A stretch of 45,455 nucleotides of DNA, the filler included, from Jimgerdemannia flammicorona (taxonomy: Eukaryota): NCBI GenBank assembly GCA_003990765.1. It is 2 parts of 2 records of this genome, joined end to end, with 100 filler letters (N's around TTAATTAATTAA, not from the genome) between each part and the next. Parts side by side here need not be neighbours in the genome. Positions count along the whole stretch, not along the records: positions 22,782 to 45,455 come from RBNJ01001229.1; 1 more part is not named here. One strand, given 5' to 3'. Shown here piece by piece: positions 1,814-43,900 of the stretch. The notes under the pieces are model-generated. The model was not told the DNA's origin, ran no database searches, and was given only the letters and a program-made list of their open reading frames with translations. The translations under genes were made by a program, and so were the position numbers. Numbering within the stretch: position 1 is the stretch's first letter; each line of letters opens with the position of its first letter.

Positions 1814-1816
1814 AGT

Positions 1817-11784: not shown

Positions 11785-11823
11785 TCAGCCCCCACTGAAG
11801 GATAGTCTGTCCCAGACTGTTCT

Positions 11824-12330: not shown

Positions 12331-12399
12331 GGTGTAGAGGGAAAATATAGTTTGAGGTGATTGATGTATACTGGTATTCTCAGGATTCGTCCATCCATA

Positions 12400-14790: not shown

Positions 14791-15204
14791 GTGGAAGGCT
14801 TCACTGTCTCCTGGGTCACAGAGGGGCCTTTCCTTTCTTCTGAAACCTTTTGTCATTTCCCGATAGGTTTAGTTCATAAACTTCTCTATGAGTTTGGTTG
14901 AGAAAAGGCACCAGATGTCCTATGATTGTTCTATTCAGCAAGATGATGGTTTCCCAACTTTGGTTGGTTACTCGGGAGAGTACTGGATTTATCTTGTCAG
15001 GGAATGTGTATCTCTCTATATCCAGATGGGGAATATCTTCCTTGGCTTCAAAGAAAAGAATTCTGAGGTCGGGTGGTACAAAGATTTCAAAGGTTGTTTG
15101 TTCTCTGGGCTCCAGGATAAGATTCTTGTGCAGTCTTACTTGTTGCCAGTACACTAGCTGGGGAACATTCCTCTTGAGGTAGTTGACTTGAAGGAGGTGT
15201 ACTT

Positions 15205-15630
15205 CTTTTCTGTCTGAACTTCCAAATCCCTTGGCTTGTCTTGTTCCTTCAGTTAGTTCAGAGACTTCTTGTAACAGTGGGGTCTTGACCTTCATGAAGA
15301 CTGTTTGGGCAATCTTCTGTTCTCTAATGATTCAGTGCCATTCTACACTACTGTTGTGTAAGATAACCTTAATTTCGCCTGTATATCCTGGGTCAATGGT
15401 TCCTCCTTCTATAGTTATTCCTTGTCTGGCAAGTCCAGACCTTGATGTCAGTTGGATGTAAGCTCCTTGGGGTGGCTGCATGGCTAATCTGGTTCTGATC
15501 ATGAAGGTTTTTCCAGACTTGATAGATTCATCCTCCAGACTGTGAAGATCATACCCTGTATCTTCTGGGTGAGCTTTGGTCAGGGGTTTGGCCTTGGGAT
15601 GTAGCAGACCATACTGGGCAATGTCCTTGC
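15205..15630 (-). pseudogene. dut: Trimeric-type dUTPase domain within gypsy pol
   Basis: Motifs I-V are all visible: TGYDL, SRSGLA, GGTIDPGYTGEI, IAQ, RQAKGFGSS. Confidence 0.92.
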
Positions 15631-16899: not shown

Positions 16900-17280
16900 T
16901 GGTCACCTTAACTCTGTACTTCTTGCCTTGGTATTCAAACTTGAGTACTTGATGACCAATATCAACAACTGCATTCATTTCCTTCATCCAGTTGGTGCCA
17001 AGAATAATGTCATAGGTGACAGCTTCTGTGACAACAGCTTTGGGGATAGAGAACTGAATGTGTCCAAGAGAGATAGTGATGTTTCATACTTCTCCAAGGG
17101 GTTGAGTTTGGGCTCTATCTGCTACTATGATGCTGAGATTGTATAGTCCATCAATGGGCCATTGAAGGGTGTCCAGGAACTGTTTGGCAATGACACAGAT
17201 GGCTGCTCCTGTGTCAATGAGGATCTTTACCTTTTGTCCTCCAATATCTCTATATAGGTAGGTGCTGACATGTCTTTCAG
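16900..17280 (-). pseudogene. Retropepsin aspartic protease
   Basis: VKILIDTGAAICVI followed by YDIILGTNW. Confidence 0.9.
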
Positions 17281-17721
17281 CTGCTTCGACAGGGATGGGA
17301 GCTGGTTCTTGCTGTGGGATTGGGACTTGGCCAGTGCTAGACCTGGTAGTTCTCAACAATTTGTTTTGGACTCCAGCTGGTATCAGTTGCAGGAACTGCA
17401 GGAGAGGGACTTCTATCTTGGCCTCTTAGATCTTCTGCCAGGCTTCAGTGTAGATGTCTCTAGGCATAGTCTTTGGGATGTACATTTTCTTGAGCTTTGG
17501 GGCGACAGGTTGCTGTTCTTCTTGTTACATTTCTTTATCTTCTGGTGGCAACTCATTTGTCTCTGGGACAAAAGGTGAGGGAGTCCAGGGAGGTGTTTCT
17601 ACTTGTTCCTCCTCATGTTCTTCATCTTCTTCTTAGATGATTCTTCTGCTGACTACAGGTCTCTTCCTTTTCTCTGCTGGGTACACTATTTTTCAGGTGG
17701 TAACCTTAGTAGGGTACAAGT

Positions 17722-18922
17722 CTAAGTTACTGTAATCTTCACTGTTACTTGCTTCCTTGAAATCTTCAACAGGATGGGCTTCAGTTTTCTTATACTGAGT
17801 ATCATTCCTTTGGTTTGGTGGTTCTGAGTCCCTTCAGTTATTTCTTTTGTTGTCACATTCAGTAGCATAGTATCCAAATTGTCCACAATAGAAGCATTGG
17901 ACTTGGGCTCTGTCTCAGACAGAGCACCTTCTTTCTTCTTGCTGATAATTCCTGTTATCTCTTGGTGGATAACCTTGGCTCCTCTGTGGTGGGTATCCTT
18001 TGTTGTCTTGGTAGCCCTGATTTTCGCATGTGGTGAGTTTTTCAATCTGTCCAATCAACCAGTCCAACTTGGAGCTGAGGTCTTGGATTTCACTTCTGTC
18101 CTTCATTCCTTCCTTGACTGGCCTTCTTTCTTCAGATCTCTCTTGCCCTTGAAGGAGTCCTTGTAGGGCTTTAACCAGGATGTCTTCTTTATCTTCCTTC
18201 TTATCATGATCACTCCAGGTAGTTCCTTGTCTGACATCAAAGAATCCTTGGGCTGCATCTACTTGCTCTTTAGATCTTCTGATGCCTAGGGTGTGGATGT
18301 GCTGGGCAATATTTGGAGGAATTTCATTCATAAAGGTCATTGAACCTATGATGTCCTAGTTGGTGGCATTGAACTCTGCAGTATGCATTCTCTTCTGGAT
18401 TCTTGTGAAGAAAGCTCTGGGTGATTCTCTAATATTCATCTTCATCTCCATGATGGATTCTTGAGCCTTGTGGTGGGTTTTGTTTCCTGCATACTTTTCA
18501 ATGAGCCAGTGGACCATGGCCACATATTCTAGCTCATAAGATGCTGCTGCCTGTATCTGTCTTACCAATTTGGAATCAGGATTGTTTGCTGTTTGATGGA
18601 AAATTCCTCTGGCTGGTTCTCTGAGCTGAGCCTTGTAGATGGCGATTTTTCTTTTATCTGAGAGATTCCTCAGGGCTGCGATTCCTTCCATTCTGTCAAG
18701 GAATTCTATGGGGTCTTCCTCCGGGTATCCTGCAAAGGTTGGCAATGAGGTGGCCATTTCATCATCACTTACTTCTGATTCTGGTTTGTGTTTGGATTCT
18801 GATTCTGATTCACTTTCTGAACTATCACTGGAGATGAGGGTGGTTGGGTATCTTGAGGATAGTGTTTGGGACCTTGGATGAAGTGGAATAAGCTTAGTTA
18901 TTTTTGTAGGAGCTACTTCCAA
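17722..18922 (-). pseudogene. Gypsy gag with CCHC-type knuckle relic
   Basis: LPTFAGYPEEDPIEFL...ESPRAFFTRI, and CFYCGQFGYYATEC at ~17855-17900. Confidence 0.8.
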
Positions 18923-19297
18923 CTCTGCAAGGGGTTGTGGTAAAGGTTCTATTGGTGAGATTGATGGTACTGATATGGGGTGTCTGGCTGTAAGGTCTTG
19001 GGTTCATGTGATAAGATCTTCTAGTTCATGTACAAGTTCTTCAAAATCTCTAGCAGAGCTGCCTGTATTGTCTGATTGATCTGGTTGGGGATTTTGGGCT
19101 GTACTGCCTTCTGGTTCTAGTTGGGATCCTTCTGATGCTGGGTAGTTGGCAAGTCTTGATGTGATTACTTCTCTTCCTGTCCAAATGATGGTGATAACTG
19201 GTTCTCCTGTAGTAGCAGAGATTGGTGTTGTATCAAATGTATCCAGTTCGACTGTGGGTTCTTGTGAGCTGAAAAGTTATGTTGAAATTCTATTTGT

Positions 19298-19314
19298 TCC
19301 CAGTTGAGCCCCCA
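19298..19314 (-). promoter_or_regulatory. tRNA-Pro-type PBS
   Basis: TGGGGGCTCAACTGGGA lies 2 nt after the LTR and resembles the classical Pro PBS TGGGGGCTCGTCCGGGA. Confidence 0.8.
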
Positions 19315-19316
19315 AA

Positions 19317-20539
19317 TGTAATGTGCCTGGCTCAATAGAGGCAAATTACAAGGTTGGGAATTGATGTAGTTTGGCTTGAGCCCACAGTTACTTTGTTAAA
19401 AGCAACAAAATGTTCTTGGTATTTAGTGGTATAATAGTCAAGATCCAGATACTGTGCTAGCAGTTTCTTTTTGGGACAGGTTCTTGGGTGTAGCAGTAGT
19501 TTGTGTGAGCAGTTTTCTTCTTAGATGGCAGTCAATTTGTATGTAGTGCAAGCAGGTTCCTTATCCAGGTTGACTGGGAATGCTATGATTTTGTGTAGTG
19601 CTACAATCTCTGTGTAATGGTCTGGCAATTTAGCCGTTCTCCTTCTTGAGTGATGGGCGATCTCTGTATAGTGCCACAATCTCCAAAAGTATGCAATTTC
19701 TGACAGATGGCTCAATTTGGCATGGCTTCTCTGAAACTGTGGCTTACTGGAAATTATACTGGCAGTGGATAACTCAATTACTCAGGCTCACTGGGGACAA
19801 ATAACTCAGAGGTTGCAGAAACTCAGATGGTACAAATCAGGTTCTTCTGGGAATGTAGATAACTCAGAAATGATGGCTTCAACTGGAAATTAACTCAGAT
19901 AGTGCAGATTCTTTCTAAATCAGCGGCTTCAACTGGAAAATGGTGGCAAAGTTTTTCCTTGAACTTGGGTGGCAAATCTTCAGGTTTATCTGGCAAGCAA
20001 ACCAAAAACGGACTCATTCTTTGTATCGAAAAGTAGACCAGAGTGGAAAAAGGAAACCAATGCTCACAATCTCCTAGTAGTGGCTTTAGAGTGAGCATTT
20101 CTCCTAAGTGTTGCAATCCTTCCTGGATCAAGTGGCTTTTGGCAGGCTTATCCCTTGAAGTATAGTAGGCTGACTTGTCTTTTGCTTTTTGGATTCAATT
20201 TCGGACTCTTCTTTGTATTGGAAAGTGAACCAGAGTTGAAATGTGTTCGGAATTTCGGACTGAGGTTTATTCACTCTTATCTCTGGGGTATTTTATACAT
20301 TGTGGTTACTATCTGGTTGCTATCTGGCTAACTATAGATTTGCTATTTTTGGGTGGACAGCCAATGTCTCGTGGACAGTCACTGTCCAGAGAATAGCCAC
20401 TGTTCATATTATCCCCTTTTCCAGCTATCTGGTCATTCATACATTTTTCCACAGCAATGGTTGCTGGTTACTATGCTATGCTAATGTTCACATCACCCAG
20501 TTTGGTTTTGAGGTTGCTACATTTTTGTAGTTTATCATA
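19317..20539 (-). repeat. 5' LTR (family B)
   Basis: Direct repeat of 10562-11784. Confidence 0.95.
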
Positions 20540-23455: not shown

Positions 23456-25901
23456 CCCCCTCACCTGCTGGCCTTTACTCCATACCCAGTCTATTCCCTA
23501 TTACTACCCAAAAGTCCCCCAACATCTTGCACTCTCAGCCAGTGTTCTGGCATCTGCACCAGACCCCCAGCTCACCCTATATTGTAACACTCCTTACAAT
23601 CAAAACGGCCACCTTCTACTAGATGCCCAGTGTAGAAATTCAACATGACATTCCTCCGCAACATTTGCCACCATACTACCCAGAACTTGGGAGGAAGCTG
23701 TCTTCACACCTCAGCAGTCCATGACCAGATACCAGCCCAGTCCCACTTGCCAATCCCTACTGCCTGCCAGCCACTTGGCCAAAGATCTTGGCCCAGCCCC
23801 TGCTGACACTCTACTCTCTCCCCAATGTCAAATGTAGCAAGTAGAGCACCCCCCATGAGCAGTCTATCCCAACACCACATATTAGGCCCCCACATCACTT
23901 TCTCCTCATTGCTTTGCCAGCATAGGCTAATTTGGTGTGCTCCATCTACCACTCCCCACCAAAAGCCCTTGAACCATAGCTGCTGATTTCCATTCAGCCC
24001 CACCAGAGAGAGCAGATCTCCAGAGGACCCTCGAGGGGAGGTGCTCATCTCTCACACCTTCTGCAGCAGAGGCACCCAACCTCCACCCTGTAGTTCCACA
24101 GCTCTCTTCAACCACCAGACTCACAAGCAGTGCAGCCTCTTAGGGAAATCTACAAGGCCAAGACCTCCCCTGACCACTGGTCTCGCAAGAGTATTCCAAC
24201 TGACCTGAGATCTCCTCCTAGCCCAAATCCAATCTCTAGCCACCTTTGTCAGCCTCTTCACTATCTATGCTGGGAAGTTGAGTTGATAGGCCATGTACCA
24301 CAGCTTGGGGAACCAGTATATATTCAGAATTGATACCCACCCTGCTAGAGAGATATGGCAGCCTCCCCAACCTCGAAGGGCCCCCCCAAATGGCCACCCT
24401 GCTCTCCCACCACACTTGTGGCAAGACAGAACCATAAACAGAAAGGAAGATATCCAGATACTGCACCACCTCACTAGTAGGGACAATTGTTCCAATGACA
24501 TCTCCACCCACTAGCCTATTCTCTAGCACTATTGTCTCATACTTATGCCAGTTGAGCTTTGCCCCAGAGTGAGCCTTATACCACTCCACTGTCTCCTTAA
24601 GTGCCTCTACATCTGCCACAGACCCAAGTCCAACCACCATGTCATCAGCAAAGGCCCCCACCTTCCACACTATACTATATATAGAGAGCCCTACCACCTT
24701 TCGGTGAATCCTATCCATCAATGGCTCCAGCAAAAGAGCATAGAGAATAGGGGACAGAGGGTCCCCCTGAGGAACTCCTCTTCCCAAGGAAAATGCCCTC
24801 CTATAGTATTCATTATACATCAGCACTGCCTGACTACTTTCTAGTAGATTCAATATAGAGGCCCTAAATCTTGATAGAATACCAATTCAGTCCAACACCT
24901 TGCCCAGCCAAACCCACCATATATGGTCATAGACCTTCTCTTGGTCCAAAAAGACCAACCTTCCATCCAGTCCACAGACCTGGGCCCCTTCAATGACACC
25001 ATATACCCATGCAGTCCCATCTCTTATAAGTCTGCCCCCAACAAAGTCCCACTGCTCCTCCCCCAGCACCTGTTGGGCAACTTTCTGTAGCCTTGTGACA
25101 ATTACCTTAGTCACCATCTTTCTGTCTATATCCAGAAGCATGATTGGTCTCCAGTTCTTCCAGTCTTCCCTCCTCCCCTTGTCTTTGTACAATAAGGCTA
25201 CCAGCCCAAGGTCCTGCTCTCCAACCCACTCACCACTCTGAAGAATATGGTCACAGAGAGCAGCCATCTCACCCAAAACTCCAGGGACCTATACCATCTT
25301 CTTCCAGAAGTCCCATAGCAATCCATCCTCCCCTGGCACCATCCCAAGTTTAGTTGCTGCCAGGATACTCTGGATCTCCTCTCCTTGCACTGGTAAGATC
25401 AAGTCAAGGAGGAAGAAGGCCCAGCGGGAGCCAAGGGAGCGAACCCAGAGCCAGTATCAAAGCAAATGGAAGACATGTGGAAAAGTGTGTATAAGGGGGA
25501 TAAATAAAGAACATAACCAAAAATACATCAGCCATTTATTACCATGTAAAAACGTGGTCCTTATATACAAAATACAACGTCCCAAAAGGGAGGATGCACC
25601 ACAACTTGGAGCAAACTGGATTAGGAACCATATGACTGCTGGAGATAGGCAGAGATAAAGGGGGAGCCAATCCCAGTTGCAGGATAAAAATCACAAACAA
25701 ACACAAACAAAACAAATCCAAATCGAGATTAAAAAACATCCACAGACCCCAGAGAGGTGAGCATGAGTGAGGGGTGAGACCAAAATGGAGCGAGCTGCAG
25801 TGAGCCCAAGCAAAGTGAGGGGCCGAAGGCAGTGGAGGGGAGTGGAGTAAGGCTGAGACCCTGGAGTGAGCACGAGACCCCGGAGGGGGCAAGGATGTTT
25901 T

Positions 25902-27959
25902 TTAATCCTCTCCAGCAGAGCTGGAGGCACCAGAAGGTAACAAAAACACAAAACGAGAGCGATGGATTAAAGAAGAAATGGAAGGAAGATGCGAATGAGC
26001 AATCAGAGGGCATCGAGAAAGAGATGAAAGTCTATGGTATGAAAGAGAAGAGTGCAGGACAGTATCAGGGCATTGAGCAACCCAGCAAGCATGATCAAAT
26101 AGTATAACAAGAATCGGGGGTGGGAAAGAAGAGGGGGTACAGAGAGAGTAAGGGGGGAGGGAGGGAAGGGAGGGGGAGTAAAGAGGAGAGAGTAGGGAAG
26201 AGCAAACAACAGACCATTCAACAGAAGCAAGCAGATCATGAATGATAGAAATAGGGTAGGCACAATGATGGACCACGAAGTTGCCAAGAACCTGAACAGC
26301 AGACACCCAGTCAGAATGACAGGAGTAGCAAAGTGCAAGATGACAAACCTCACCATGAATACATTCAAGAAGAGTATGACGAGGATGATTGGACAAGAAG
26401 TCAGGGAACTGTTGGGAATGGGGAAAATGAGAATAAACAATAGTTTGGAAGGGAGAAAGAGAAATGGAAAGATCCAAAAAGGGAATACTAGTTATACTGC
26501 ACACCCAGTTAATAGAATGGTGGAGAGGATAGATGCCCAGAAACACACTAGGGATATCAATACCAGCAATAGCAAAGACAATAAAGTTATCAATATATCG
26601 GTGAAAGAAGATATCTCCAGCCCAGAATGTAATGGAAAGAGGTGAAGTAATATCACGTAATGCATGCAATTCATGGGACAGGCCAACAAGGTTGGCAAGG
26701 GTGGGGGTACAATTCATTTCCATAGCAATACCAGAAATCTGATGAAAGGAGCCAAGGGCTGACTCAAAATAAATAGAGTCACAGATGAGAAGCATGAGCT
26801 CTATAATGGAAGCCAGTGAAACTGGGGAATCCAAAGGAAAAACAATGGAGCCCAAGAAGCGAAGGCAAGCATCAATCTCATCAAAACGAATAGCAGTATA
26901 AAAGGAGGAGAAATCACCAGAGGCCAAATGGGAAAAACAGTGAACAGGTACAATGGTGGAGCAGAGAAGGGCGAGCTCCTGAGTATCACAAAGAATGGTA
27001 TACTCAGGTCCAAGACAGTGTTGTAAAAGAGCCATCCAGGAGAGAAAGAAGCAGGATAACCACTTCGAAATCTCAGTAGTAGGAGAACTGTAAGCAGCCA
27101 TAATGGGATGCCAAGCCAGAGTAGGCTTGTGAACTTTAGGAAGAGCATAGAAAACTGGAAGAGAAATATCCAGGGAGGATAAAGAGTCCTGGAAGAAGTT
27201 AAAAATGGGGTTTGCGAATAGGGAATCCAAAAGCGATCTGGCGTGAGCCAGAGAAACCCGAAGAAGAGTAAGAATCTCATCCAATCCAAGAGCACTAGGC
27301 TTGTAAGCCATGGCTCGAAGGAGGGCAGAAAGGCCATCAAGGTAGAGCAACTTAGGAATAAGTGCAAAACCCTGATTCTTATCAGTGACTGTGAGCAAAT
27401 GCATAGGCAATTGCTTGACTGATTTAAGTGCGGTACACACGGCACGGTCCAAAACCAAGCAAGAGCAAGCATGTCCAGGAATGGACAGCGAATAAGCCAT
27501 GTTGAGGAATATGCAGTATGAAGAGACATTGAAAGGGGGGACCCAATTGCTAGGAACAAAATAGTGAGAGGGCATCTTACCACAATCTTGAAAGAAAATG
27601 GCAAGGTCAAGAGCATGATGAAAACATGTGAGACGAGCCAGATTAGTGAAGGAGAATTGTAAGAGAGTCACAGGAAAAACAAAGCAAGGACCCAAGGATA
27701 AGGCAAAGACTTGAAGGGGAGAAAGGGGACAGTCAGCTGAAGAAAAAGGAGGAGACAAAAGAGTTCCAAGAGAAGAATAAACCTGAAAGTTTGGGACAAG
27801 CAACTGGGAAAGGCGAAGGGGGGACAATATGAGGAACCACTCAGGGCACACCAGAAGTGACAATGGAATCCGAGAAGGGATGGGGACACTGGGGGAGAAC
27901 TATACCGGGGGGAAGTTTAAGAGCAGGAGGCCTTCCCCTTCCCTCTGACTTTTTTTGAA
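25902..27959 (-). pseudogene. PLE reverse transcriptase (left copy)
   Basis: DKNQG, YALPKVHK...HPI, GDFSSFYTAI, QISGIAM, RYIDN (catalytic DD decayed), IPFLDL, SNHP. No GIY-YIG before the stop. Confidence 0.9.
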
Positions 27960-29132
27960 GGCGGCAAGTCTGACGAATGGGAGCACACCCCGTCAGAGTG
28001 CCAGACCTTGTGGCCACAGGCTTTCGTGCAGCCCTTACATTCAGGGGTATGGGTGGAGGAGGCAGAGGAGGAACTGGTGGAGGAGGCTGAAGGCAAGCAA
28101 GCAGCCGAAGGGGCAGCAGTATGAGGAACATCACCATGAGGACAGATGGACTTGGCCAGGTGCCAGTAGGCATGGTGGAGGCGACTGGAGCAGACAGTGC
28201 AAGGCCAGGCTCTGACAGGGTGAGAACCAAGTTGGCGGCCATGCTTGGGGGCAGGGGAAATGGAGGAAGAAGCCTTGGTGGGGGAGGGGGACCAGGAAGA
28301 GGCTGACGAAGCCTGATTGGGCTTGGCAGGGGTCTTGGCGGGGGTCTTGGAGGGGGCCTTGGTAGCGGCAGCAGTGAAGGAATGAACCTCAGCATGAGCA
28401 GCAGCACGAGCTTCGGTATGAATGGCCTTGGAGACTGAAACCTCAGGGAGGAAGGCAGGGAAGCAGTGGTGGTGGCACAAGCAGTGGTGGCAGCACATGA
28501 CATCTCCTGCTCATGAAGGCAAGCAACAAAGGAGGTGCTGGCAAGGAGGAAACGATGCACAGCATCGATGTCGGTGGCGACAGAAGGAACATCTTAGATG
28601 GCGAAGCCATAGAAGGGGGCGGCATCCAAAAGACAAGAGGAGGTGAAGGCCATGAAGGCAGCACAGGTATGGTGGAAGGAGGTAGAGACAGTAGCGGCAG
28701 AAGCAGTGGTGGCATCAGTAGCGGCAAGTTTGGTGGTAGCAGTAGCAGCACAAACCTCTTTAGAGAGGGCTTGGTGGCGGGCCTCAGGGAGAATGGAGTA
28801 GCAGATGATGGGTGGAGTGATGACATTGATGTCATGGTGGAGATGAGCCTCCTTGGCGGAGAGGGTAGAACCAACCAGAATTGGGAGAGGAGCAGATGAC
28901 CAGAGGGACAAAGGTCCAAGGGGAGGGAAAGGATGGCAGATGAGATATAAGTCTCAAACGAGACAGTAGTGGGGGTGAAGGTGGGGGGAGAGAGAGAAGG
29001 AAGCTCCTCATCCATGAGCTCGTCGATAAGGACAGAGACCCCGAGAGTAGGTGATATAGTAGAGAAGGAAAAAGGCCCAGCAGGAGCCAAGGGAGCGAAC
29101 CCAGAGCCAGTGTCAAAGTGAATAGAAGACAA
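27917..29132 (-). pseudogene. PLE ORF1 (left copy, frameshifted by decay)
   Basis: Pieces in ORFs 28443..29144, 28594..28911, 27841..28560 and 27917..28498. Ala/Ser/Pro-rich with a Cys/His C-terminus. Confidence 0.7.
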
Positions 29133-29382
29133 GTGGAAAAGCATATATAAGGGAGATGAACAAAGAATGTAACCGAAAATGCATCAGCCATTTATTGCCA
29201 CGTAAAAACATGGTCCTTATATACAAAATACAACATCCCAAAAGGGAGGATGCACCACAACTTGAGGTGAACCGAATTAGGAACCACATGACCACCAGAG
29301 ATAGATGGAGATAAAGGGGGAGCCAATCCCAGTTACAGGATAAAAATCACAAACAAACACAAACAAAACAAATCCAAATCGA

Positions 29383-29563
29383 GATTAAAAAACATCCTTG
29401 CCCCCTCCAGGGTCTTGCGCTTGCTCTGGGGTCTTGGCCTTACTCCGCTCCCCTCTGCTGCCTTTGGCCCCTTGCTTTGCTCGGGCTCACTGTGGCTTGC
29501 TCCATTTCGGCCTCACCCCTCACTCACACTCACCCCTCTGGGGTCTGCAGATGTTTTTTAATC
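29383..29563. repeat. 15-bp inverted repeat enclosing a 151-nt GC-rich spacer (also at 25727-25907 and 33041-33221)
   Basis: GATTAAAAAACATCC...GGATGTTTTTTAATC is perfect in both terminal copies, with one transition in the central copy. Confidence 0.92.
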
Positions 29564-29720
29564 TCGATTTGAATTTGTTTTGTTTGTATTTGTTTGTGAT
29601 TTTTATCCTGCAACTGGGATTGGCTCCCCCTTTATCTCTGCCTATCTCCAGCGGTTATGTAGTTCCTAATTCAGTTCACCTCAAGTTGTGGTGCATCCTC
29701 CCTTTTGGGATGTCATATTT

Positions 29721-29755
29721 TATATATAAGGACCGCATTTTTACGTGGCAATAAA
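29721..29755 (+). promoter_or_regulatory. TATA-like box and AATAAA in the PLE terminal repeat
   Basis: TATATAAG and AATAAA upstream of the ORF1 start, conserved in all four repeat copies. Confidence 0.4.
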
Positions 29756-29813
29756 TGGCTGATACATTTTCAGTTACGTTCTTTGTTCATCCCCCTTATA
29801 CATGCTTTTCCAC

Positions 29814-31031
29814 ATATCTTCTGTTCGCTTTGACACTGGCTCTGGGTTTGCTCTCTTGGCTCCTGCTGGGCCTTCTTCCTCTTCTGCTGTACTGCCTGCC
29901 CTTGGGGCCTCTGTCCTCATCAACAAGCTCATGGATGAGGAGCTTCCTCCTCCCCCTCCCCCTGCCTTCACTCCCGCCACTGTCTTGTTTGAGACTTACA
30001 TCTCATCTGCCATCCTTTCCCTCCCCTTGGACCTTCATCCCTCTAGTCATCTGCTCCTCTCTCAATTCCGGTCAGTTCTTGCCCTCTCCACCAAGGAGGC
30101 TCATCTCTACTGTGATGTTGACATCATCACTCTGCCTGCTGTCCACTACTCTGTTCTCCCTGAGGCCTGCCGCCAAGCCCTCTCTGAAGAGGTTTGTGCC
30201 GCCACTGCTGCTGTCAAACTTGCTGCTGCTGATGCCGCCACTGCTTCTGTCACTGCTGCCTCCACCTCCTTCCACTGTACCTGTACTGCCTTCATGGCCT
30301 TCACCTCCTCTCACCTTTCAGATACTGCCCTCTTCTGTGGCTTTACCATCTAAGACATTCCTTCTGTTGCCACCAACATCGATGCTGTGTGTTGTTTCCT
30401 CCTCGCTGGCACCTCCTTTGTTGCTCACCTTCATGAGCAGGAGATGTCACATGCTGCCGCCACTGCTTGTGCTGCTGCCACTGCTCCCCTGCCTTCCTCC
30501 CCTGAGGTTTTGGTCTCTGAGGCCATTCATGCCAAAGCTCATACTGCTGCTCATACTAAGGTTTGTTCCTTCACTGCTGCTGCCATCAAGGTCCTCTCCA
30601 AGACCCCTGCCAAGACCCCCGCTAAGCCCAATTAGGCTTCGTCAGTCTCTTCCTGGTCCCCCTCCCCTGCCAAGGCTTCTTTCTCTATTCCCCCTGCCCC
30701 CAAGCATGGCCGCCAACTTGGTTCTCGCCCTGTCAGGGCCTGGCCTTGTGCTGTCTGCTCCAGTCGCCTCCACTGTGCCTACTGGCACCTGGCCAAGTCC
30801 ATCTATCCTCATGGTAGTGTTCCTCGCACTGCTGCCCCTTCGGCTGCTTGCTCGCCTTCGGCCTCCTCTGCCAGTTCCTCCTCTGCCTCCTCCACCCATG
30901 CCCCTGAATATAAGGGCTGCATGAAAGCCTGTGGCTGCAAGGTCTGGTACTCTGATGGGGTGTGCTCCTGTTCATCGGGCTTGCTACCTTCAAAAAAAGT
31001 CAGAGGGAAGGGGAAGGCCTCCCACTCTTAA
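29814..31031 (+). pseudogene. PLE ORF1 (~405 aa, right copy)
   Basis: Start is ATA here but ATG in the terminal-repeat copies (33472). In-frame pieces 29802..30353 and 30387..30635. Ends ...PSKKVRGKGKASHS-stop. Confidence 0.7.
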
Positions 31032-33046
31032 ACTTCCCCCTGGCATGGTTCTCCCCCAGTGTCTCTGTCCCTTCTCAGATTCTGTCATCACTTCTGGTGT
31101 GCCCTGAGTGGTTCCTCATATTGTCCCCCCTTCATCTTTCCCAGTTGCTTATCCCAAACTTTTGGGTTTATTCTTCTCTTGGAACTCTTTTGTCTCCTCC
31201 TTTTTCTTTGGCTGACTGCCCCCTTTCTCTCCTTCAAGTCTTTGCCTTATCCTTGGGTCCTCACTTTGTTTTTCCTGCAACTCCCTCACAATTCTCCTTC
31301 ACTGATCCAGCTCATCTCACACATTTTTGTCATGCTCTTGACCTTGCCATTTTCTTTCAAGATCATGGTGAGATACCCTCTCGCTATTTTGTTCCTAGCA
31401 ATTGGGTCCCCCCTCCCAATTTCTCTTCACACTGTGTATTCCTCGACATGGCTTGTTTGCTGTCCATTCCAGGATGTGCTTGCTCTTGCTTGGTTTCAGA
31501 CTGTGCTGTGCATACCATGCTTAAATCGGTCAAGAAATTTCCTATGCATTTGCTCACAGTCACTGATAAGAATCAGGGTTTTGCACTTATTCCTAAGTCA
31601 CTCTACCTTGATGGCCTTTCTGCCCTCCTTTGAGCCATGGCTTATGAGCCTAGTGCTCTTAGATTGGATGAGATTCTTACTCTTCTTCAGGTTTCTCTGG
31701 CTCGTGCCAGATCGCTTTTGAATTCCCCATTCGCGAACCCCATTTTTAACTTCTTCCAGGACTCTTTATCCTCTCTGGATATTTCTCTTCTGGTTTTCTA
31801 TGCTCTTCCTAAAGTTCACAAGCCTACTCTGGCTTGGCATCCCATTATGGCTGCTTATAGTTCTCCTACCACCGAGATTTCGAAGTGGTTATCTCGCTTC
31901 TTTCTCTTCTAGATGGCTCTCTTACAACACTATCTTGGGCCTGAGTATACTATTCTTTGTGATACTCAGGAGCTTGCCCTTCTCTGCTCCACCATTGTGC
32001 CTGTTCACTGTTTTTCCCATTTGGCCTCTGGTGATTTCTCCTCCTTTTATACTGCTATTTGTTTTGATGAGATCAATGCTTGCCTTCACTTCTTGGGCTT
32101 CATTGTTTTTTCTTTAGATTCCCCAGTTTCACTGACTTCCATCATAGAGCTCATGCTCCTCATCTGCAGCTCTAATTATTTTGAGTTGGCCCCTGGCTCC
32201 TTTCATCAGATTTCTGGTATTGCTATGGGAACGAATTGTGCCCCCACCCTTACCAACCTTGTTGGCCTGGCCCATGAATTGCATGTGTTATATGATATTA
32301 CTTCACCTCTTTCCATTGTGTTCTGGGCTGGGGATATCTTCTTTCGCCAATATATTGATGACTTTATTGTCTTTGCTGTTGCTGGTATTAATATTCCTAG
32401 TGTGTTCCTGGGCATCTACCCTCTCTACCATTCTATTAACTGGGTGTGCAGTATGACTAGTATTCCCTTTTTAGACCTTTCCATTTCTCTTTCTCCCTTC
32501 CGAACTGTTGTTTATTTCTGTTTTCCCCATTCCCAACAGTTCCCTGACTTCTTGTCCAATTATCCTCATTGTACTCTTCTTGAATACATTCATGGTGAGG
32601 CTCATCATCTTGCACTTTGCTGCTCCCATCATTCTGACTGGGTGTCTGCTGTTCGGGTTCTTGGCAACTTCATGGCCCATCATTGTGCCTACCCTATTTC
32701 TATTATTCGTGATCTGCTTGCTTCTGTTGAATGGTCTGTTGTTCACTCTTCCCTACTCTCTCCTCTTTACCCCCCCTCCCTTCCCTCCCTCCCCCCTTAC
32801 CCTCTCTATACCCCCTCTTCTTTTCCACCCTCGATTCTTGTTGTACCATTTGATTGTGCTTGCTGGGTTACTCAATGCCCTGATACCATCCTGCGCTTTT
32901 CTCTTTCATGCCATGGACTTTCATCTCTTTCTCAATGCCCTCTGATTGCTCATTCGCATCTTCCTTCCATTTCTTCTTTAATCCATCACTCTCATTTTGT
33001 ATTTTCATCACCTTCTGGTGCCTCTGGCTCTGCTGGAGAGGATTAA
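30989..33046 (+). pseudogene. PLE reverse transcriptase (right copy)
   Basis: In-frame ORFs 30962..31633, 31637..31912 and 31913..33046 are separated by single stops. GIAMGTNCAP, YIDD, PFLDL. Confidence 0.9.
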
Positions 33047-36000
33047 AAAACATCCTTGCCCCCTTCGGGGTCTTGCACTTGCTCCAGGGTCTTGGTCTTA
33101 CTCTGCTCCCCTCTGCTGCCTTCAGCCCCTCACTTCGCTCGGGCTTGCTGTGGCTCACTCCATTTTGGCCTCACCCCTCGCTCACACTCACCCCTCTGGG
33201 GTCTGTGGATGTTTTTTAATCTTGATTTGGATTTGTTTTGTTTGTGTTTATTTGTGATTTTAATCCTACAACTAGGATTGGCTCCCCCTTTATCTCTGCC
33301 TATCTCCAGCAGTCATGTGGTTCCTAATTCGGTTTGCCCCGAGTTGTGGCATGTCCTCCCTTTTGGGACATCGTATTTTGTATATAAGGACTGCGTTTTT
33401 ACATGGCAATAAACAGCTGATGCATTTTCAGTTACATTCTTTGTTCATCCCCCTTATACATACTTTTCCACATGTCTTCTATTCACTTTGACACTGGCTC
33501 TGAGTTCACTCCCTTGGCTCCTGCTGGGCCTTCTTCCTCCTCTCCAGCTACTTGTGGTGGCCCCCACTCTTCTAGTGTATCTGCAATTGCCTCCTCATCA
33601 GCACCTCCTTCTCCCTCACTTCACAAACCCTGCCATCTCTCCTTCAAAACCCCTAAGATTTGTTGTGTACTATGCACCATATCCCCATTGGCATCCAGGA
33701 CCCCATCCCACCAATGTTGCACTCTCCTAGCTTTGAGAAGTCTTGATAAGTACCTAGTAGGCCACTCACTCTCCTCAAGCCCCTGCTACCATAGCCTAGT
33801 AGCCATTCCCCACATATGTGTCTCCTCCTCTTCTCCCAACATCTGTTGTAGTTCCACTATCTCTAATTTCACCCTCTCTATTCTCCAATCCTCCACCCCA
33901 TCAGCAGTGAGCAAATCTGCCCACTCTATTTGTAGTCTCCTCAGCCTGCTGGAAGCACATCCCATGTGCCTCCTCCTCCTCCTCCCAGCCTCTCTACTAG
34001 TAAACTCTTACAGCCTCTTTCAATCTCATCCAATAGACATCTACAGGCAAACCCTCATGCCTCTAGATAGAAACCTTCGCCTGAATGTCCTCTATCCATG
34101 ATTTCCACAACTCCTTCACAGCCAGTAGGGAGAAGTTAAGACACCAATGTCTGGGTCCATCTCCACTCCCCCCAAACTGCCCCTGCTCCAACAGTCTCCA
34201 GTGATCAGACCACAGGTACCACTCCACCTCCAATGCCTTCCAAACATCTGAACCCCAGCACTCTGCCATCAGAATTCAGTCAATTCTTGTGCCCAAGCCA
34301 TTCATCCAATGTGTGTAGACCCTGGCATCACCCCACAGTGTTCTGCCCATATCCCCTAAGAAGCTCAATATCTCCACTCCTCCCAAGCATCCAGACCTCT
34401 ACTTCTCCTCCCTGCACTTCTCCCTCCATCAGTTCTGTCCAGATGCTGATCCCAAACCATATTAAAGTCCCCACTGAGAACATTGACCCCTTTCTCCAAG
34501 AGAATACCTTCCTCCAGCAGCTCCCTAATCCACACAGTCCTCTCACCCCTAGCTGCGGGGCAGTAGCAAGAGCCCACCTTCACTGATTCCCACCCTGGCC
34601 AATGCCAATCTCCCCAGACCAAGTGATCACCCCAGCTCCAGATTCCCCCCAAGTCCCCTCTGCCCTTTCTCATCAGAATTGCCACTTTCCCAAACCAAGT
34701 AGTAGCCCCACCCCATTCCCTAGTCCACTCAACTCAATCATCCTCATCCTTATACTGAACATCCTATAGTAAAAAGAGATCAGCCTCCAATCCCTTGAGC
34801 CAAGTAAAAATATTCGTACACTGCCCAGAGCCCCTCAACCTATTTACATTTAAAGAGAAAATATTAGTTGTACTGTTCATAAAAAATAATGATATATCAC
34901 AATTCCATCCTCTACAAGTCCACATTTGGCTCCTCCTACACCAAGTCCAAGTCATGTTCAGCAGCTAGTTCCCTTTCTCTAGCTTCCTGTACCTCCAACT
35001 CTCTCAGAAGTTCCACCATTGCCCCATCTTCCCACTCCTCAAAGTTCTCATGATACTCCAGACAGGCCTCCTGCCAGAGCTGCAGACCATGATGCTCTGC
35101 CCAACAGTAGACCACCTGCTCACCAGTGACCACCACCAGCTCTGCCTTCCTCACCTTATCAACCTCATATCCCTCCTCCTTCAGGAAAATTGTGTGAATC
35201 TCCACCTTCAGTGTCTCTATCACCCCATCACCATACAGAATCTGTGCCCAATGCTCCTCAGGTATTGCCTGCAGGTCCACTTCCCCCAAAGCCTCTGCTG
35301 CGAGGTTATCCATCACCTTGCTCATCCACAGCAAGTTCCCTACCTCCTTCCCTCCTGGAGTCCCCAGCCACCCTGCATCCAACATCATGGTGTCAGCTCC
35401 TATACTGGCAGCCTCATTCCACTCCTCCTCAGGGACATCCACCAGCTCATCCTCACCAACCACCACCACCTGGCCCCCTTTCGCCATATCAGGGACCCCA
35501 AAGTACACTCGCTGGGCCCCCTGCATCAGTACATCCTCCATCACCCCTCTCTTTCCAGCTGGGCCCCTCCTGATAAGTGGGGGGGGGGGTGGTATCCAAC
35601 TCCTGCTCCCATACTTCAAGGGTACCATTAGCATATAGATTCCTGTCCTGCATCTTCCCAGCCCCTGCCTCATTTGCCACTACCTCCTCTCCTCCTTTAC
35701 TAGCCCAGACACTGGCTTTGATGCCTCCAGACTCCTCAGCTCCAACCAACTTCTCTTTCACCCCTCCTGTCATATTCGCCAAAAGCTCCCTCTGCCTCTT
35801 ACATCTCTGGGCCCATTCCCACTGCTTCCTATCAGTATGGATATACTTCCCATCCACAACCTCCAGATGTGTGGACTCCTCATACAGCTTCCAGGCCTTC
35901 ACCCTCCTCTCTACAGCACCACTCAACTCCTCCAGTGCCTCCAACAAGTCCTCCTCCTCCTCTTCACTCCTTTTTACCCTCGATACCTTACAGATGAAGG

Positions 36001-37039
36001 CCCCCCACATCAGCACTGATGGCCAGTCACTTGTCTTCCCTGTGGCCTCCTTCCCCACCAAACGAATTCTGACATTGACATCACCTGTCCTGAATGTCAT
36101 CCCCTCCCACAACTGAAAGCCTATGTCCACTATATCACCATATTCAACCATCACCTCCTCCACCCTCCTCCTAGTCTCCTCCTTAGTCACCATGGGCACC
36201 CCCCTCACCAGAAGCTGCACCACCCTGGGGTCTCACCTCAAGCATCTCACCATGGGGACCACTATCTCACCAACTACCACTCTAGTCTTCATAGCCTCGT
36301 TCAGTAGGCCTATCTCCTCAAAGCCCACCTCAACCCCCTCTAGGCCCTTCAAGAACTTCACCAAGGCCACCCCAGCCACCTGCTTCAAAATAAGCCCCAG
36401 GACCATCCTCACCATCACTGCTAAGCCCCGGAAGTACAAGGTAGCTGCAAACTCCGAGATTGACTTTTTGAGCAATAGGGCCACCACTAGTCCCATTACA
36501 CCATTGGTCAGGTCTCCCTTCTGCTTCAGGAACCCCTGCCCTCTCTGGCCATCAGCTATCACATCTCTTTTTTTTTCCTGATTCACCATCATACCACCAT
36601 CAGCAGTCCCACTACTACCCCCAGTAGCTACTCCACTACCTCCACCTCCCACCAGTAAAGGTCCAGCTCCCCCAGCATTCCTAGCCTTCTGCTTCCCCTT
36701 CCCATCTGCCTGTTCTCTATGGGCTCCTATTGGCCATCCCCCAGTCTGCAGTGTGTCCACAAAGCTCCTTCCCTGCTGCCCTTCTGCCCCCCCACCAGTG
36801 CCTCCTCCACTGCTCGAGCTGCCCTGCCCACTTGAGCCACCAAAAGACCCCATCCCCAGTCCATACCCTCTCCCAACATACTGCCAGTCAAAGGCCCCAG
36901 GTCTGCCCAATCTAGTATACACATCAGCTTGCCTGCTGGTTGACATTGTCTTATTATCTTTCTCCAATAAACGAGTTGAAAGTATGTTATAAAGTGTGTA
37001 TAATATGAATTATAGTGGAGAAAGATGTATCTGAGCATC

Positions 37040-39214: not shown

Positions 39215-40936
39215 TAGTTATACTGAATAATACCAGCACTGGTATTTGATGTAACACTGAATAATGCCAGCACCAGTATTTGATGTAACACTGAATAATT
39301 CCAGTACTGGTATTTAATATAATACTGAATAATACCAGTACCAGTATTCTGATGTAACATTGAATTATACCAGCATCTTGAACCTATACAACCATCAGTG
39401 CTAACTCTGGAACTTAGCAGTTTTTCCTGTCCTGGCATTTTATTTTAGTTATTGGAAGTTATATTTAGCTTTATATCTTAGCAACCATTGAATTATATTT
39501 TGTATAAATACCTCTCTTATTTCCTCTGAAATAATGTCAGTCAAGTTCACTTATACACACTTTCTTGCAAGCAATCTAAGAGATAACAAGATAGTTAAAG
39601 ATAAGAAGTTTGAGGACTATAAGACTTTGGGAAGGCACTCCAATAAGAACTTGCTTATAACAAACTTGAGTTAGTCTAAGAGATATACCTTGAAGAGAAT
39701 CTGGCATATTTGAAGGACTCAGTGACCACTACATAACAACTTGGTGCCCATTGGCTGGTAATTCAAGACAAATCCCTCACTTTCAAGCTGAAAAATGAAC
39801 AACCCCCACAATAACTATCTTGACTACAAGAGTCTGCAAGAATTCAAGACAAGATAGAAATATACCCCCCCACATTCTATGGATATATTACTGAAGAGTC
39901 AATCCTGACCTTCATTGAAGACTTTGAACAATTTGCTGTCATAAAAGCCCTTGGTGTGGATACACAATTGGCCCTTCTACCAGTCAGTCTCAGAGGACCT
40001 ACCAGAGATAAGTTTGCAGCCACTATTGCTGATAATGGTGCAGCCAAACTTGCCAACATAAAGGCCTTCCTCAGAACAACATATTATACTGAAGAAATCA
40101 AGTAAGCTCTCAAGGATCAACTCAATACTATCTGCCAGAGACTTAGTGAAGATCCCAACTTATTCTATACCTGAATCTGCCACCAGATTGTCTTGGCTAG
40201 CTATGATGATGCCCTCAAGGAACAAATAGTGGATTCAACCTTCCTCAAAGGAGTTCACTCTGAAATTGCCCTAGCAATCCAGTCTACCCCAGCTGCACTG
40301 ACCCTTGATCAGAAAGTAGTCTTTGCACAGAGATATTGGCCTGTCAGACACCCTGCTGAACACTCAATAGAGAAAATAACTGGTATCAAGATGGAGCCAT
40401 CAAAGCCAACCAGCATTATATCTACCACAGTTGTAAACAGACAACCATTCCCACCTACCCCCAAGACAGCCAAAGCTGACCCAGTAGAAGAACTTGCCAA
40501 GCAGTTCACCAAGATGACTGCACACCTTGGTGATATTGTTAGAGAAGTCTGAAGTGCTAACAGGAGACCAGTGCAGAGATTTGCAGCTACTACAGAAGAA
40601 TACAATATCATATGCTTCAGATGTGGAGAAGAAGGCCACTATGCAAAGAACTGCATGACCAAAACAAGATACAAAGCCCAACCAAGCAATGTTAGCAAAA
40701 CTAGAGAACAAACCAATGCAGTAGTTATTGAGGAGATTAGTGATACTGATGATGAAGAATACTATGAGGAGCTCAAATTCTACCCTACTACTGAAGGTAC
40801 CAGAACCTGGTCCAAGCCCTATGACAGGAAGAGCAACAGCAAGCCAGTTGGAAGACCAAAGAAGACCCCAGCTGTTACTATTCAAAGCAAGACTCAATCC
40901 AAGGAGATTGATCAAGACATGGAGTTAGATGAAGCT
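39215..40936 (+). mobile_element. Gypsy 5' part: LTR (~39215-39738), PBS (39742-39754), gag
   Basis: LTR ends ACATAACA, followed by TGGTGCCCATTGG. Gag with CFRCGEEGHYAKNC knuckle. Interrupted by LINE copy C. Confidence 0.85.
39221..39376. repeat. ~4.5 tandem copies of a 34-35-bp unit with an internal palindrome
   Basis: Unit yactgaataataccagyacyrgtatttgatgtaa. Confidence 0.9.
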
Positions 40937-43900
40937 GCCCAGACTCACCTTTATCAGCTACCACTCATGTTACACATACTTTACAACATACTTTCAAGTC
41001 ATTTATTGGAGAAAGGTACTAAGGAAACAGCAAATAGCAAGTAATCTGGAGTGCATACTGGGCAGGGTGGCCCTAGTGCATTCGACTGGCAGCAGGTGGG
41101 GAGGGGTCCTGGCCTGGGGGGAGGCATGAGGGGGTTGTTGGCAGGAGGACAAGGTGGGGGAGGAGGCAGCAGGGGAGGACAGGGGTCAGAGAGGGCAAGC
41201 TTTGTGGAGATGGTGAAGGAGAGGCAACAGGTGATAGGGCTGGAGGGCTGACTGAGGAAAGGCAAGGAGATGGAGAAGACAGCCATTTGTGGGGGAGCAG
41301 TTCTTGGGGGTGAGGGCGGTGGAGCTGGGGGAGTAGTGGCTGGGGGGAATGTAATGGCTGATAGTGATGGGACTGCCAATCTGGAAAAAAATCCAGATGC
41401 AACTGCTGATGGGGTGGCTGAGTGACTGAGGCTTAGAAGACAAGGAGATTTGGTGGATGGTGTGATGTGCCTGGCAGTGGCTCCATTACTTAAAAAATCA
41501 ATCTCAGTATTTGCAATGATGTTGTGCTTCTGGGGCCTGGCAGTGATAGCAAAAATGGTGCTAGGGCTTATCGCCAAGCAGGTGGCAGGAGCAGTGTCAG
41601 TGAAGTTCCTGAAAGGATTGGAGAGAGTAGAGGTTAGTTTTAAGGAGGCTGAGCCCCTGGAGGAGGCACTGAAGGTTGAATTGATAGTTGGGGAGATGTG
41701 TGTCCCAATGGTGCACTCTCTGAAATGAGACCCCAGGGTGGTCCAGCTATTGGTGAAAGGAGTGCCCATGGTGATGGCAGTGGAGACAAGAAGGAGAGTT
41801 GAGGAGGTCATGGCAGAATATGGCAAGGTAGTGGATATTAGATTCAGAGTCTGGGAGGGGACCTCACTCAGGATGGGAGTTGTGGATGTGAGGATTTGGC
41901 TGGCAGGAAAAGAAGCCACTGGGAAGACAAGAGACTGGCCATTAGAGATAGTCTGGGGGGCGATCTTGTGCAAGGTGACGAGGGTGAAGGGGAGTAAGGA
42001 GGAGGAGGAGGACTTGCTGGAGGCACTAGAAGAACTGAGTGGAGTAGTGGAGAGGTGGGTGAAGGCTTGGAAGGCTTTCAAGGAGTCGACCACTTGGAGG
42101 TAGTAGATGGGAAGTCGATTCGAGTGGACAAGGTGCAATGGGAAAAGGTTCAGGAATATAAGCATCAGAAGGAGCTACTGGCCAAGTTGGAAAGTCAACC
42201 ACAGAAGGAGGCTGATGGAATGGTGGAAATGGGGGGTACTAAAGCAAGTGTCTGGGCTGGCGAAGATAGTAGGGGTGCCAAGAAGGGATCAGGAGAGAGC
42301 AGGAAGGCAGCTGGCAGTGACCCATATGCTGATGGTACACTTGAGGTCTGAAAAGAAGACTGAGTAAGATTGCCTACCCCTACACTACTTATCAGGAGGG
42401 GTCCAGCCTCCTGGCACAAGGTGGGGGAGGATGTGCCTATGAAGGGGGCCCAGAGAGTGCAATTTGGAGTCCCAGAGGTGGCAAATAGAGGACAGATAGA
42501 GGCAGTTGGTGAGGAGGAACTGGTGGATGTCCCAGAGGTGTGGAATGAGGCTGCAAGTACTGGGGCTGATACCATGATGTTGGACAGTGGGTGACTGGCA
42601 ACCCCAGAAGGGAAGAAGGTAGGAAACCTACTTTGGATATATAGAATGATGAATAATCTGGTAGCTGAAGAGCTGGGGGAGGTGGACTTGAGGGTGATGA
42701 GTGATGAGCATTGAGTGTGGGTCCTGCAGAGGGATGGGGTAGAGTTGGCATTGAAGGCAGAGATCCTTACAGTATATCTGGAGGAGGAAGGGTATGAAGT
42801 GAATGAGGAGCAGGAGGCTGAACTAGCTGGGGTCACTGGTGAGAGGGCCAAATACTGTTGGGCCAAGTGTCATGGATTGCAGCTCTGGCAGGAAGCATGT
42901 CTGGAGTACCGAGAGGAGTTTGAGGAGAAGGCAGATGGGGAGATGAATGAACTGTTGACAGGATTGGAGGCTCAGCAGACAGAGGAGGAGGAGGTGACAG
43001 CAGAACATAATCTGGATATGGCACAATAAGAGATGAACATGGAGCAGTAGGATTGGACTGGATTAATACTCTATACTTCATTATGAATAGTATGATCAAT
43101 ATTTTTTCTTTAAATGTGAATGGGTTATGGGGTGTGGTTCGATGTAGAAACATTTTTACTTGGCTGAAGAGATTGGAGGCCAATCTCTTCCTCTTGCAGG
43201 ATGTCAGGTGTAATGATGATTTGGATAGACTGGAATGGACAAGGGAATGGGGAGGTGAGACAGTTTGGAAAGGCAAGGTTGGGATTCTGATGTGGAAAGG
43301 CAGAGGAGAGATAAGGAACATTCAGAGCTAGGGGGACTGATTGGTCTGGGGGGAGTGGATATGTTCGGGATGGGAGCCAGTTATAGTGGGCTCTTGCTAC
43401 TGCTCCATGGTATGGGGTGAGCATATGGATTGGATGAAGGGCCTTCAGGAAAGTGGGATCCTCACAGAGGCTGGGGTGGATATACTGGGTGGAGACTACA
43501 ATATGGTCTGAGATATACTGGAGGACAGAACAGATAGAGAATGGGGAGCTGAGGGTTGGAGAGGTGGACTGATGGCATGGAAGGAAGTGGAAAGGCTGAG
43601 TGTACTGGTGGATGCAGGCAGAGAGTGCTGGGGGAATAGGAGGGTTTACACATATTGGGCAGGAGACTTGGGGATGAGGATTGATTGGATCCTGATGGCC
43701 AGCTACTGGGGCTTGGATGTTTGGAAGTCACTAGAGGTTGAATGGTGTTCTTGGTCAGATCATTGGGGGCTTTTAGGACAGGGACAATTTGGGGGGAGTG
43801 GGGATGGGTCTGGACATTGGCACCTCAATTCCTCCTTGTTAGATGATAAGATCTGATGGGATGAGTGGGCTGCAGACATTTAACTGAGGGTAGAGTACTG

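Follow-up and report, generated by a model that had tools for sequence, protein, structure and literature searches.

A predicted strand-asymmetric rod at the hinge of inverted pseudo-LTRs in Penelope-like elements of Jimgerdemannia flammicorona without a recognisable endonuclease

Two high-copy families of Penelope-like elements (PLEs) in the genome of Jimgerdemannia flammicorona, neither with a recognisable endonuclease, have inverted ends that are set with single-base precision and hinge on a sequence of 181-200 nt. In family 1, a dispersed PLE, this sequence is a module that makes up the first 181 bases of the pseudo-LTR (pLTR). The inverted junction lies precisely at the foot of a strand-biased rod predicted in both families, the outer ends of the elements are fixed, the insertions show no target duplication, and the arms derive from a single template. 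It seems fairly probable that the minus-strand form of the predicted rod lets the 3' end of new cDNA prime its own second strand (fold-back priming). The module bears on the question of how PLEs synthesise the second strand and come to have head-to-head ends.

The window, i.e., the whole stretch of 45,455 nt of assembly GCA_003990765.1 that was analysed, contains three copies of the 181-nt module with a mean column identity of 88% (Table 1). A preliminary description of this DNA had listed three copies with a 15-bp stem; all three were recovered, and the closing inverted repeat is 15 bp long in the two outer copies but 14 bp in the copy 29383-29563. The short motifs quoted in that description were found where it had placed them, and the left arm of the inverted repeat overlaps the last RT codon and the stop codon (33041-33046), as it had reported. 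An 8.1-kb head-to-head palindrome (25405-33543), which the preliminary description had not mentioned, has its hinge at the copy 29383-29563. The two arms of this palindrome are 89% identical, with 430 of their 441 differences being transitions, and have locus-private variants in common. Because the left arm of the rod foot is the reverse complement of the right arm, it is common to the 5' end of the left element and the module. The palindrome was inserted into a LINE, the halves of which rejoin with an overlap of 0-2 bp when compared with an uninterrupted relative, so no target duplication accompanied this insertion. An assembly artefact was rejected because the arms differ at 11% of sites; in each of the public runs X1 and X2, a single contig shows the inverted joint as a loose end.

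Table 1. Annotated parts of the palindrome locus (positions along the window; u, unit coordinates)
Feature	Position	Strand	Remark
Central module, u1-181: closing inverted repeat and 151-nt spacer	29383..29563	+	Palindrome hinge; rod predicted without branches, minus strand giving the best fold
Left arm of rod foot	29383..29397	+	Reverse complement of the right arm (14/15 bp in this copy)
Right arm of rod foot	29549..29563	+	14/15 bp complementary in this copy
Rod apex	29474..29480	-	Family consensus GCGAAGC on the minus strand; one CpG-type change here
3' module of right element, directly after RT stop	33041..33221	+	
3' module of left element	25727..25907	-	
3' pLTR of right element, u1-503	33041..33543	+	Stops ~70 nt inside the ORF1 start, at the fixed end of the family
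3' pLTR of left element	25405..25907	-	
Palindrome right arm, full decayed element	29550..33543	+	
Palindrome left arm, full decayed element	25405..29396	-	89% identical to the right arm
ORF1	29814..31031	+	Decayed here; ~405 aa in intact copies
ORF2, RT	30956..33046	+	Stop-broken here; 696 aa open in other copies
ORF2 of left element, 665-aa open stretch	25902..27899	-	
5' part of the LINE hit by the palindrome insertion	33544..37037	-	
3' part (RT region) of the same LINE	23504..25404	-	

The family-1 unit (u1 = 29383) is 3658 nt long and consists of the module, a 5' region, ORF1 and ORF2, in this order. A TATA-like box is located in the pLTR at 29723-29729 (u341-347), ~90 nt before the ORF1 start, and is a possible internal promoter. 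The window also holds a probable LTR retrotransposon (10553-20537, minus strand) with ~1.2-kb direct repeats 8.75 kb apart and gag-, protease- and RNase H-like fragments inside, decayed L1-type LINE copies that are mutually 68-75% identical (368-1403, 23504-25404, 33544-37037 and 40936-45309), and a tandem array with ~72-nt units (3577-4187), around which the region 1816-7165 contains further repeated blocks.

ORF2 encodes a reverse transcriptase (RT) that resembles telomerase. In a 70-sequence alignment, the DK motif was nearly invariant and the catalytic Asp invariant, and the top two Foldseek matches of the predicted structure (pLDDT 83) were telomerase. Pfam returned nothing beyond a weak RVT_1 match for ORF2, and the model stops ~20 residues past the thumb extension. 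Homologues of ORF2 were assigned to PF26215, with one GIY-YIG-type PLE-like protein recognised among them from its sequence. When the PDB was searched by sequence, the single protein gave no match and a profile gave weak RT matches only; the nearest named protein is a fragment from Racocetra fulgida (38% identical over 214 aa). ORF1 has an alanine-rich helical part and two Cys/His motifs. Two intact copies had no Pfam match, and the search for ORF1 look-alikes returned a single low-score match. ORF1 and ORF2 overlap at an A-run slippery heptamer in both families, which suggests that ORF2 is expressed via a -1 frameshift. No GIY-YIG endonuclease was recognised in ORF2 (Pfam, model) or in ORF1 (Pfam, two intact copies), and ORF1 may hold a nuclease of unknown fold.

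The telomerase/PLE-type RT with its upstream DK motif and thumb, as read from sequence and model, identifies the element as a PLE, and its pLTRs, which occur in direct and inverted orientation and run into the ORF start, are those of a PLE. The terminal GIY-YIG domain of the endonuclease-bearing groups (Penelope/Poseidon, Neptune, Naiad/Chlamys) was not found, and the element has in common with Coprina/Athena that it carries no recognised endonuclease domain. Telomere attachment was rejected: the consensus of neither family contains telomeric repeats, runs of at least three repeats were present in 2 of 285 loci, neither of them from families 1 or 2, and the element ends join unrelated DNA. A telomeric PLE found in the same genome shares no more than 22% identity with it, over 245 aa. 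By these features, the element is outside both the endonuclease-bearing and the telomeric PLE groups as these are described. DIRS-type retrotransposons carry a tyrosine recombinase and an RNase H beside inverted termini; this combination was not found here, and the class was rejected. Other PLE-type loci of the genome were also noted. At G000:C787:12500-20500 (L171), a decayed, distant PLE-type RT (22% identical) lies in tandem units with TTAGGG repeats at the unit joints and represents the classical telomeric kind. A locus retrieved with a PLE RT query (L208, G000:C5076:2000-11500) has a direct repeat that ends in a run of telomeric repeats. Short contigs on which the termini are not visible (L206 and L207; G000:C24122 and C34014) carry yet another, third lineage of PLE-type RT, with 28% identity to ORF2.

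A pattern built on the module gave 401 exact matches in the genome, and its reversed control gave none. Column counts over ~100 copies showed that the variation within the module is CpG decay. The copies decay neutrally, and the modules of families 1 and 2 can be aligned only at the apex. The preliminary description had drawn attention to a C(UUCG)G RNA loop at 33060. The T that creates this loop occurs in 7 of 99 copies and the family base is C; the loop is therefore a copy-specific change, and a UUCG RNA tetraloop was rejected. The sole clear non-CpG polymorphism in the module lies at u58-59 (29440-29441), with C at u59 in 9 of 100 copies and in both modules of an element. This C, as well as a one-base insertion in older copies, turns a minus-strand AA loop into GA or GAA and adds one G·A loop end.

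For folding, the consensus was CpG-restored by rule, which raises the folding energy. For the restored module, the predicted fold was one rod built from short helices, without branches, across which the quoted motifs pair. The stem enclosing mini-hairpins that had been described earlier was not obtained, as the CpG-restored module, a natural copy and the minus strand of the copy 29383-29563 all gave the unbranched rod. With RNA parameters, the z-score of the whole module was -7.2 for the minus strand versus -5.0 for the plus strand, and that of the spacer alone was -4.3 versus -0.85. With DNA parameters, the whole module reached -3.9, whereas the spacer alone (+0.4) was no better than its shuffles. 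A little-decayed natural copy formed the same rod (spacer z -3.6 minus versus -1.5 plus); with DNA parameters, its rod centre was not resolved. The same rod was also predicted for the minus strand of the copy 29383-29563 (spacer z -2.2). DNA energy parameters leave out sheared G·A pairs, so a rod in DNA rests on motif logic.

The motifs themselves are strongly asymmetric between the strands. The minus-strand loops consist almost wholly of G and A, with G first and A last. In family 1, 16 of 23 loop ends on the minus strand are G·A (shuffle mean 4.6), a count that none of 300 refolded shuffles with the foot kept equalled. When the test was repeated on the structure derived from the plus strand, which has no G·A bonus, 14 of 21 loop ends were G·A, again with 0 of 300 shuffles. 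GNA-type DNA motifs, as named in the preliminary description, are indeed present, with 10 C-GNA-G motifs on the minus strand and none on the plus strand. The GCTC repeats, which it had compared with those of parvoviral termini, are what the GA-loop/GC-helix units of the rod look like when read on the plus strand. Parvoviral termini are branched (T/Y) hairpins that carry Rep-binding repeats, and the virus encodes its Rep; this class was rejected for the unbranched rod described here, with no Rep-like family and no recognisable Rep nuclease in either ORF. The minus-strand apex GCGAAGC corresponds to a DNA mini-hairpin with a sheared G·A pair and a GAA triloop, and d(GCGAAGC) is far more stable in DNA than related RNA hairpins (PMC13037366, in the parts available). 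The predicted structures would amount to a mismatched design, with a firm rod in the cDNA and a weaker one in the RNA.

A second family of the same genome (family 2) has an RT that is 38-41% identical to that of family 1, a unit of 3895 nt and a 200-nt module of different sequence. Conservation in a sister family, which the preliminary description had made a point of, was observed for the rod, for the foot junction and for 13 nt around the apex that are identical between the two families. The inversions of family 2 are located at its 10-bp foot, which was rewritten in register in both directions, and its fixed end is at u698 (22 of 26 tails). On the minus strand, the family-2 module is also predicted to form a rod (z -5.6; spacer with DNA parameters, -1.2, no better than its shuffles), with G·A at 11 of 13 loop ends, a count found in 0 of 300 refolded shuffles. 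The structure derived from the plus strand gave 3 of 6, which 69 of 300 shuffles reached and which is not significant. The overlap of the module with the RT stop codon, pointed out in the preliminary description, is not kept in family 2, where even the furthest RT stop leaves a gap of 32 nt to the module (in 19 of 49 reads, with earlier stops in the rest and overlapping loci kept in the count), and was rejected as a conserved trait. Double-arm palindromes are the commonest class in family 2 (12 of 29 classified junctions in 32 loci, with many others truncated). One of them lies immediately next to a family-1 palindrome that has a single unit on the left and two on the right (G000:C270:1-21700; L213, L037 and L038). 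The comparison comprises two families, both from one genome: a pattern search for a third rod family returned family 1 only, three further RT loci were short or unrelated, and metagenome scans gave no relatives with DNA context from outside this genome.

Genome-wide, the family-1 module was found in two contexts, which were searched with separate patterns. In 235 cases it directly follows the RT end, and in 164 cases it directly follows an inverted downstream copy that begins exactly at the closing repeat, i.e., at the rod foot. These sum to 399, compared with 401 module matches. A pattern search of the genome gave no RT end with a loop behind it that was flipped or rewritten. Among 100 listed inverted junctions, 60 were assigned to forms: 44 had a short inverted arm and a loop oriented like the long body (form A), four had the loop flipped (form B), six had two long arms as in the window (form C), one was a solo form with two short arms (form D), and five were damaged. 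When 30 loci were instead chosen by their element body and counted by eye, 13 were form A and eight were form B. The share of form B is therefore uncertain and depends on the sample (4 of 60 when chosen by junction, 8 among 30 when chosen by body), and the ratio of 8 to 13 is above what simple fold-back predicts.

Some junctions are located inside the rod instead of at its foot. Eleven distinct family-1 junctions of this kind were found, seven at u27-31/150-154, one at 35-38/144-147 and three at 54-57/127-130. All 11 fall on predicted helices and in register, while just 9 of the 22 possible 4-nt inverted matches in the module are in register. A pattern that was also able to catch an identical out-of-register helix gave five matches, all in register, and further patterns for out-of-register joints gave none. 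No inner-rod junctions were seen at RT-end modules; they occur at inverted junctions only. Some of the seven junctions at u27-31/150-154 may be of common descent, later repair of an extruded hairpin could produce the inner junctions as an alternative, and two cDNAs pairing with each other would be expected to give the same register. In a further set of loci (L166, L315, L317, L010, L031 and L136), the end of an element runs straight into the interior of a different module. The join follows the A-tract in family 2 and the u503 end in family 1, and it looks as though folded cDNAs or the ends of modules had primed or received further copies.

These data bear on one alternative, according to which only the short foot repeat matters, the spacer is a promoter, a protein-binding or packaging site or GC-rich low-complexity filler, and the inversions are accidents of host replication. 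The unremarkable spacer folds with DNA parameters are compatible with this, as are the short repeats in the spacer, which give rise to deletions. Nevertheless, we regard it as improbable. Shuffles that kept the foot formed unbranched rods in only 7 of 300 (family 1) and 5 of 300 (family 2) cases, none of them at the observed energy or G·A count. In addition, the inner junctions follow the register of the rod, at inverted junctions and never at RT-end modules, and both apex and rod are kept in two families despite their different sequences.

The outer ends of family-1 elements cluster near u503, with 52 of 89 tails and 28 of 46 arms ending at u502-504. Only ends within 14 nt of 503 were counted, and the element maps show few ends elsewhere. 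Target duplication was rejected, with none above chance in 62 complete elements, where the longest flanking repeat was at most 7 nt, equal to that of shuffled pairs. The origin of the arms was examined by non-CpG variants. In six of six family-1 double-arm palindromes, no other locus had as many of these variants in common with an arm as the opposite arm had. In two further palindromes, arm-to-arm sharing was highest in one, and the other (L241) was equivocal, with 16 variants in common between its arms versus 17 with another locus. In family 2, the arms were closest to each other in five of five full comparisons and in 12 of 12 partial ones, the 12 including the five. Each locus having its own haplotype indicates that the inversion has been remade often, each time from one template.

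In short-arm elements, the three pLTR copies usually have variants in common (31 in 18 elements, 64 in 36). Where the copies differ, the arm matches the adjacent internal copy at 14 and 5 variants and the tail at 2 and 1. The ends of family-2 elements carry A-tracts, and so do all eight short-arm ends seen, two of which lie at contig ends (one arm merely running into a contig end was left out), while the internal copy has no A-tract at this position. An A-tract that is present on the short arm and absent from the internal copy indicates that the outer end arose either through a separate, second priming or by jumping to the tail.

Some of these observations would also fit twin priming without fold-back, in which both break ends prime cDNAs at the fixed site, the two cDNAs anneal via the foot repeat, and the rod merely protects or presents single-stranded ends. 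The end site is identical on both sides of the elements, short arms of family 2 carry A-tracts, flipped and solo forms occur, and in vitro a Penelope protein from a vertebrate starts at a single internal site and extends both strands (PMC11167929, in the parts available). We consider this explanation unlikely, as locus-private variants in double-arm palindromes would not be expected from two independent RNAs of many active lineages. Moreover, the arm equals the adjacent internal copy where the tail differs, and loop orientation is 44 versus 4 in the junction-chosen sample, i.e., not even.

Another alternative concerns the strand in which the rod acts. Tandem G·A pairs are stable in RNA too, and the best fold statistics were those of the minus strand with RNA parameters, which would suit a rod acting in an antisense RNA that self-primes reverse transcription. 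In both families, in contrast, the apex forms a GAA triloop of the kind typical for DNA mini-hairpins, and the A-tracts of family 2 lie where a sense RNA template would put them, at the sense strand's 3' end. An antisense RNA of this kind, as proposed for rotifer Penelope elements (accessible sections of PMC3846280), therefore has little probability for the families described here.

Fold-back priming, which we favour, would proceed as follows. The 3' end of a DNA break that is already present would prime reverse transcription at the fixed site u502-504; both ends of the insertions lie at u502-504 and have no target duplication, which is the basis for this step. Once the module has been copied, the cDNA would fold into the rod and its 3' end would be placed on the foot stem. 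Extension of this 3' end on the cDNA itself would then generate the mirror arm, as suggested by the shared variants and the in-register junctions. Finally, and more tentatively, the plus strand may be joined to the other break end via another cDNA, a short one for which priming again takes place at the fixed site. Joining at the first pLTR reached would leave a short arm, the common form, whereas joining at the second would give a double-arm palindrome as in the window, and a flipped loop would result if the short cDNA were the one that folds back. The preliminary description had proposed a cis-acting priming or recognition element standing where other PLEs carry hammerheads. Its cis-acting part holds in that the module is a structured pLTR module of a PLE, and a priming role would fit the junction geometry. 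It was also right that the element lacks a hammerhead: no hammerhead or other Rfam family reached the gathering score in the window stretch or in four little-decayed loci, and the CTGANGA core is absent from both strands of the pLTRs of both families. Nothing suggests self-cleavage, so the module stands in the place of the hammerhead and its job is probably a different one.

Fold-back priming would explain how mirror-image ends can be made without a nuclease. With the inverted ends hinged on a defined sequence of 181-200 nt, a vague idea of self-priming becomes testable at the bench with oligonucleotides and one enzyme, and the two families bear on the use of free DNA ends by telomerase relatives away from telomeres. 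The wider scenario is that a nuclease-less PLE branch left the telomere and spreads by patching DNA breaks, with both ends priming at one fixed site, while a strand-asymmetric rod of sheared G·A pairs with a GCGAAGC cap releases the cDNA and primes the second strand. To this scenario as a whole we assign somewhat less than an even chance. If it is true, the module would be a natural structured DNA origin of 180-200 nt in a eukaryotic retroelement, and inverted pLTRs would need no endonuclease.

Inverted pLTRs and self-priming have precedents in endonuclease-bearing elements. In the accessible sections of PMC3846280, rotifer PLEs with an endonuclease are described as having an inverted pLTR that overlaps the direct one by 15 bp, palindromes at the junctions and inferred self-priming, and fungal endonuclease-less elements are stated not to have the direct and inverted pLTR organisation. 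The endonuclease was considered very likely to determine inverted structures (PMC8557442, in part), and the fungal endonuclease-less PLEs were described as telomeric, with hammerheads (PMC13159263, PMC4209133 and PMC6431247, each in part). The accessible parts of PMC3681739 and bioRxiv 10.64898/2026.07.22.740005 contain nothing on such a junction. In the literature searched, which comprised openly accessible main texts, no asymmetric rod in a PLE without an endonuclease was found.

The closest organisation is that of the Penelope/Poseidon elements Pen2a_Av, Pen2_Av and Pen3a_Av of Adineta vaga, which, like family 1, have direct and inverted pLTRs. As described in the same sections of PMC3846280, they differ in having a GIY-YIG endonuclease, often target duplications of 8-10 bp, a hammerhead in most clades and near-perfect palindromes of 18-38 bp. 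The present element is without a recognised endonuclease, duplication or hammerhead, and has two ORFs and an imperfect 181-200 nt rod with strand-specific G·A loops. With Coprina and Athena it has in common an endonuclease-less RT, a telomerase-like fold and terminal direct repeats (parts of PMC8557442, PMC13159263, PMC4209133 and PMC6431247), and with Coprina-1_Alen and Athena also two ORFs and a helical ORF1. However, in these sources Coprina/Athena attach to telomeres via telomeric repeats beside a hammerhead, whereas the present family is dispersed in hundreds of copies, has neither telomeric repeats nor a hammerhead core, and has precise inverted ends. In PAc, a Poseidon element of Anolis, reverse transcription starts at a fixed site slightly inside the ORF that equals the element end, and both target strands are extended, as would be the case here; unlike here, its own endonuclease cuts the target and a hammerhead is present, and second-strand synthesis was left open (available text of PMC11167929). 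The apex heptamer is that of the d(GCGAAGC) mini-hairpin of the phage G4, ssiA and N4 single-strand origins, and sheared G·A pairs are likewise common to both. In the rod the heptamer is on the strand expected to be single-stranded as DNA, and its resistance to nucleases and SSB would suit an exposed cDNA end. Those origins recruit primase or RNA polymerase in bacteria, whereas the rod described here is ~180 nt long and would prime from its own 3' end (PMC13037366, in part).

More distant counterparts are found among DNA viruses. Parvoviral and poxviral termini are imperfect terminal palindromes that prime by folding back and occur in two loop orientations (flip/flop). The present element resembles them in its imperfect terminal palindrome, in the fold-back priming proposed here and in its two loop orientations. 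It differs in that it has no recognisable Rep/HUH nuclease or DNA polymerase, its rod is unbranched, its GCTC motifs are complements of the rod units, and it is a retrotransposon with an RT.
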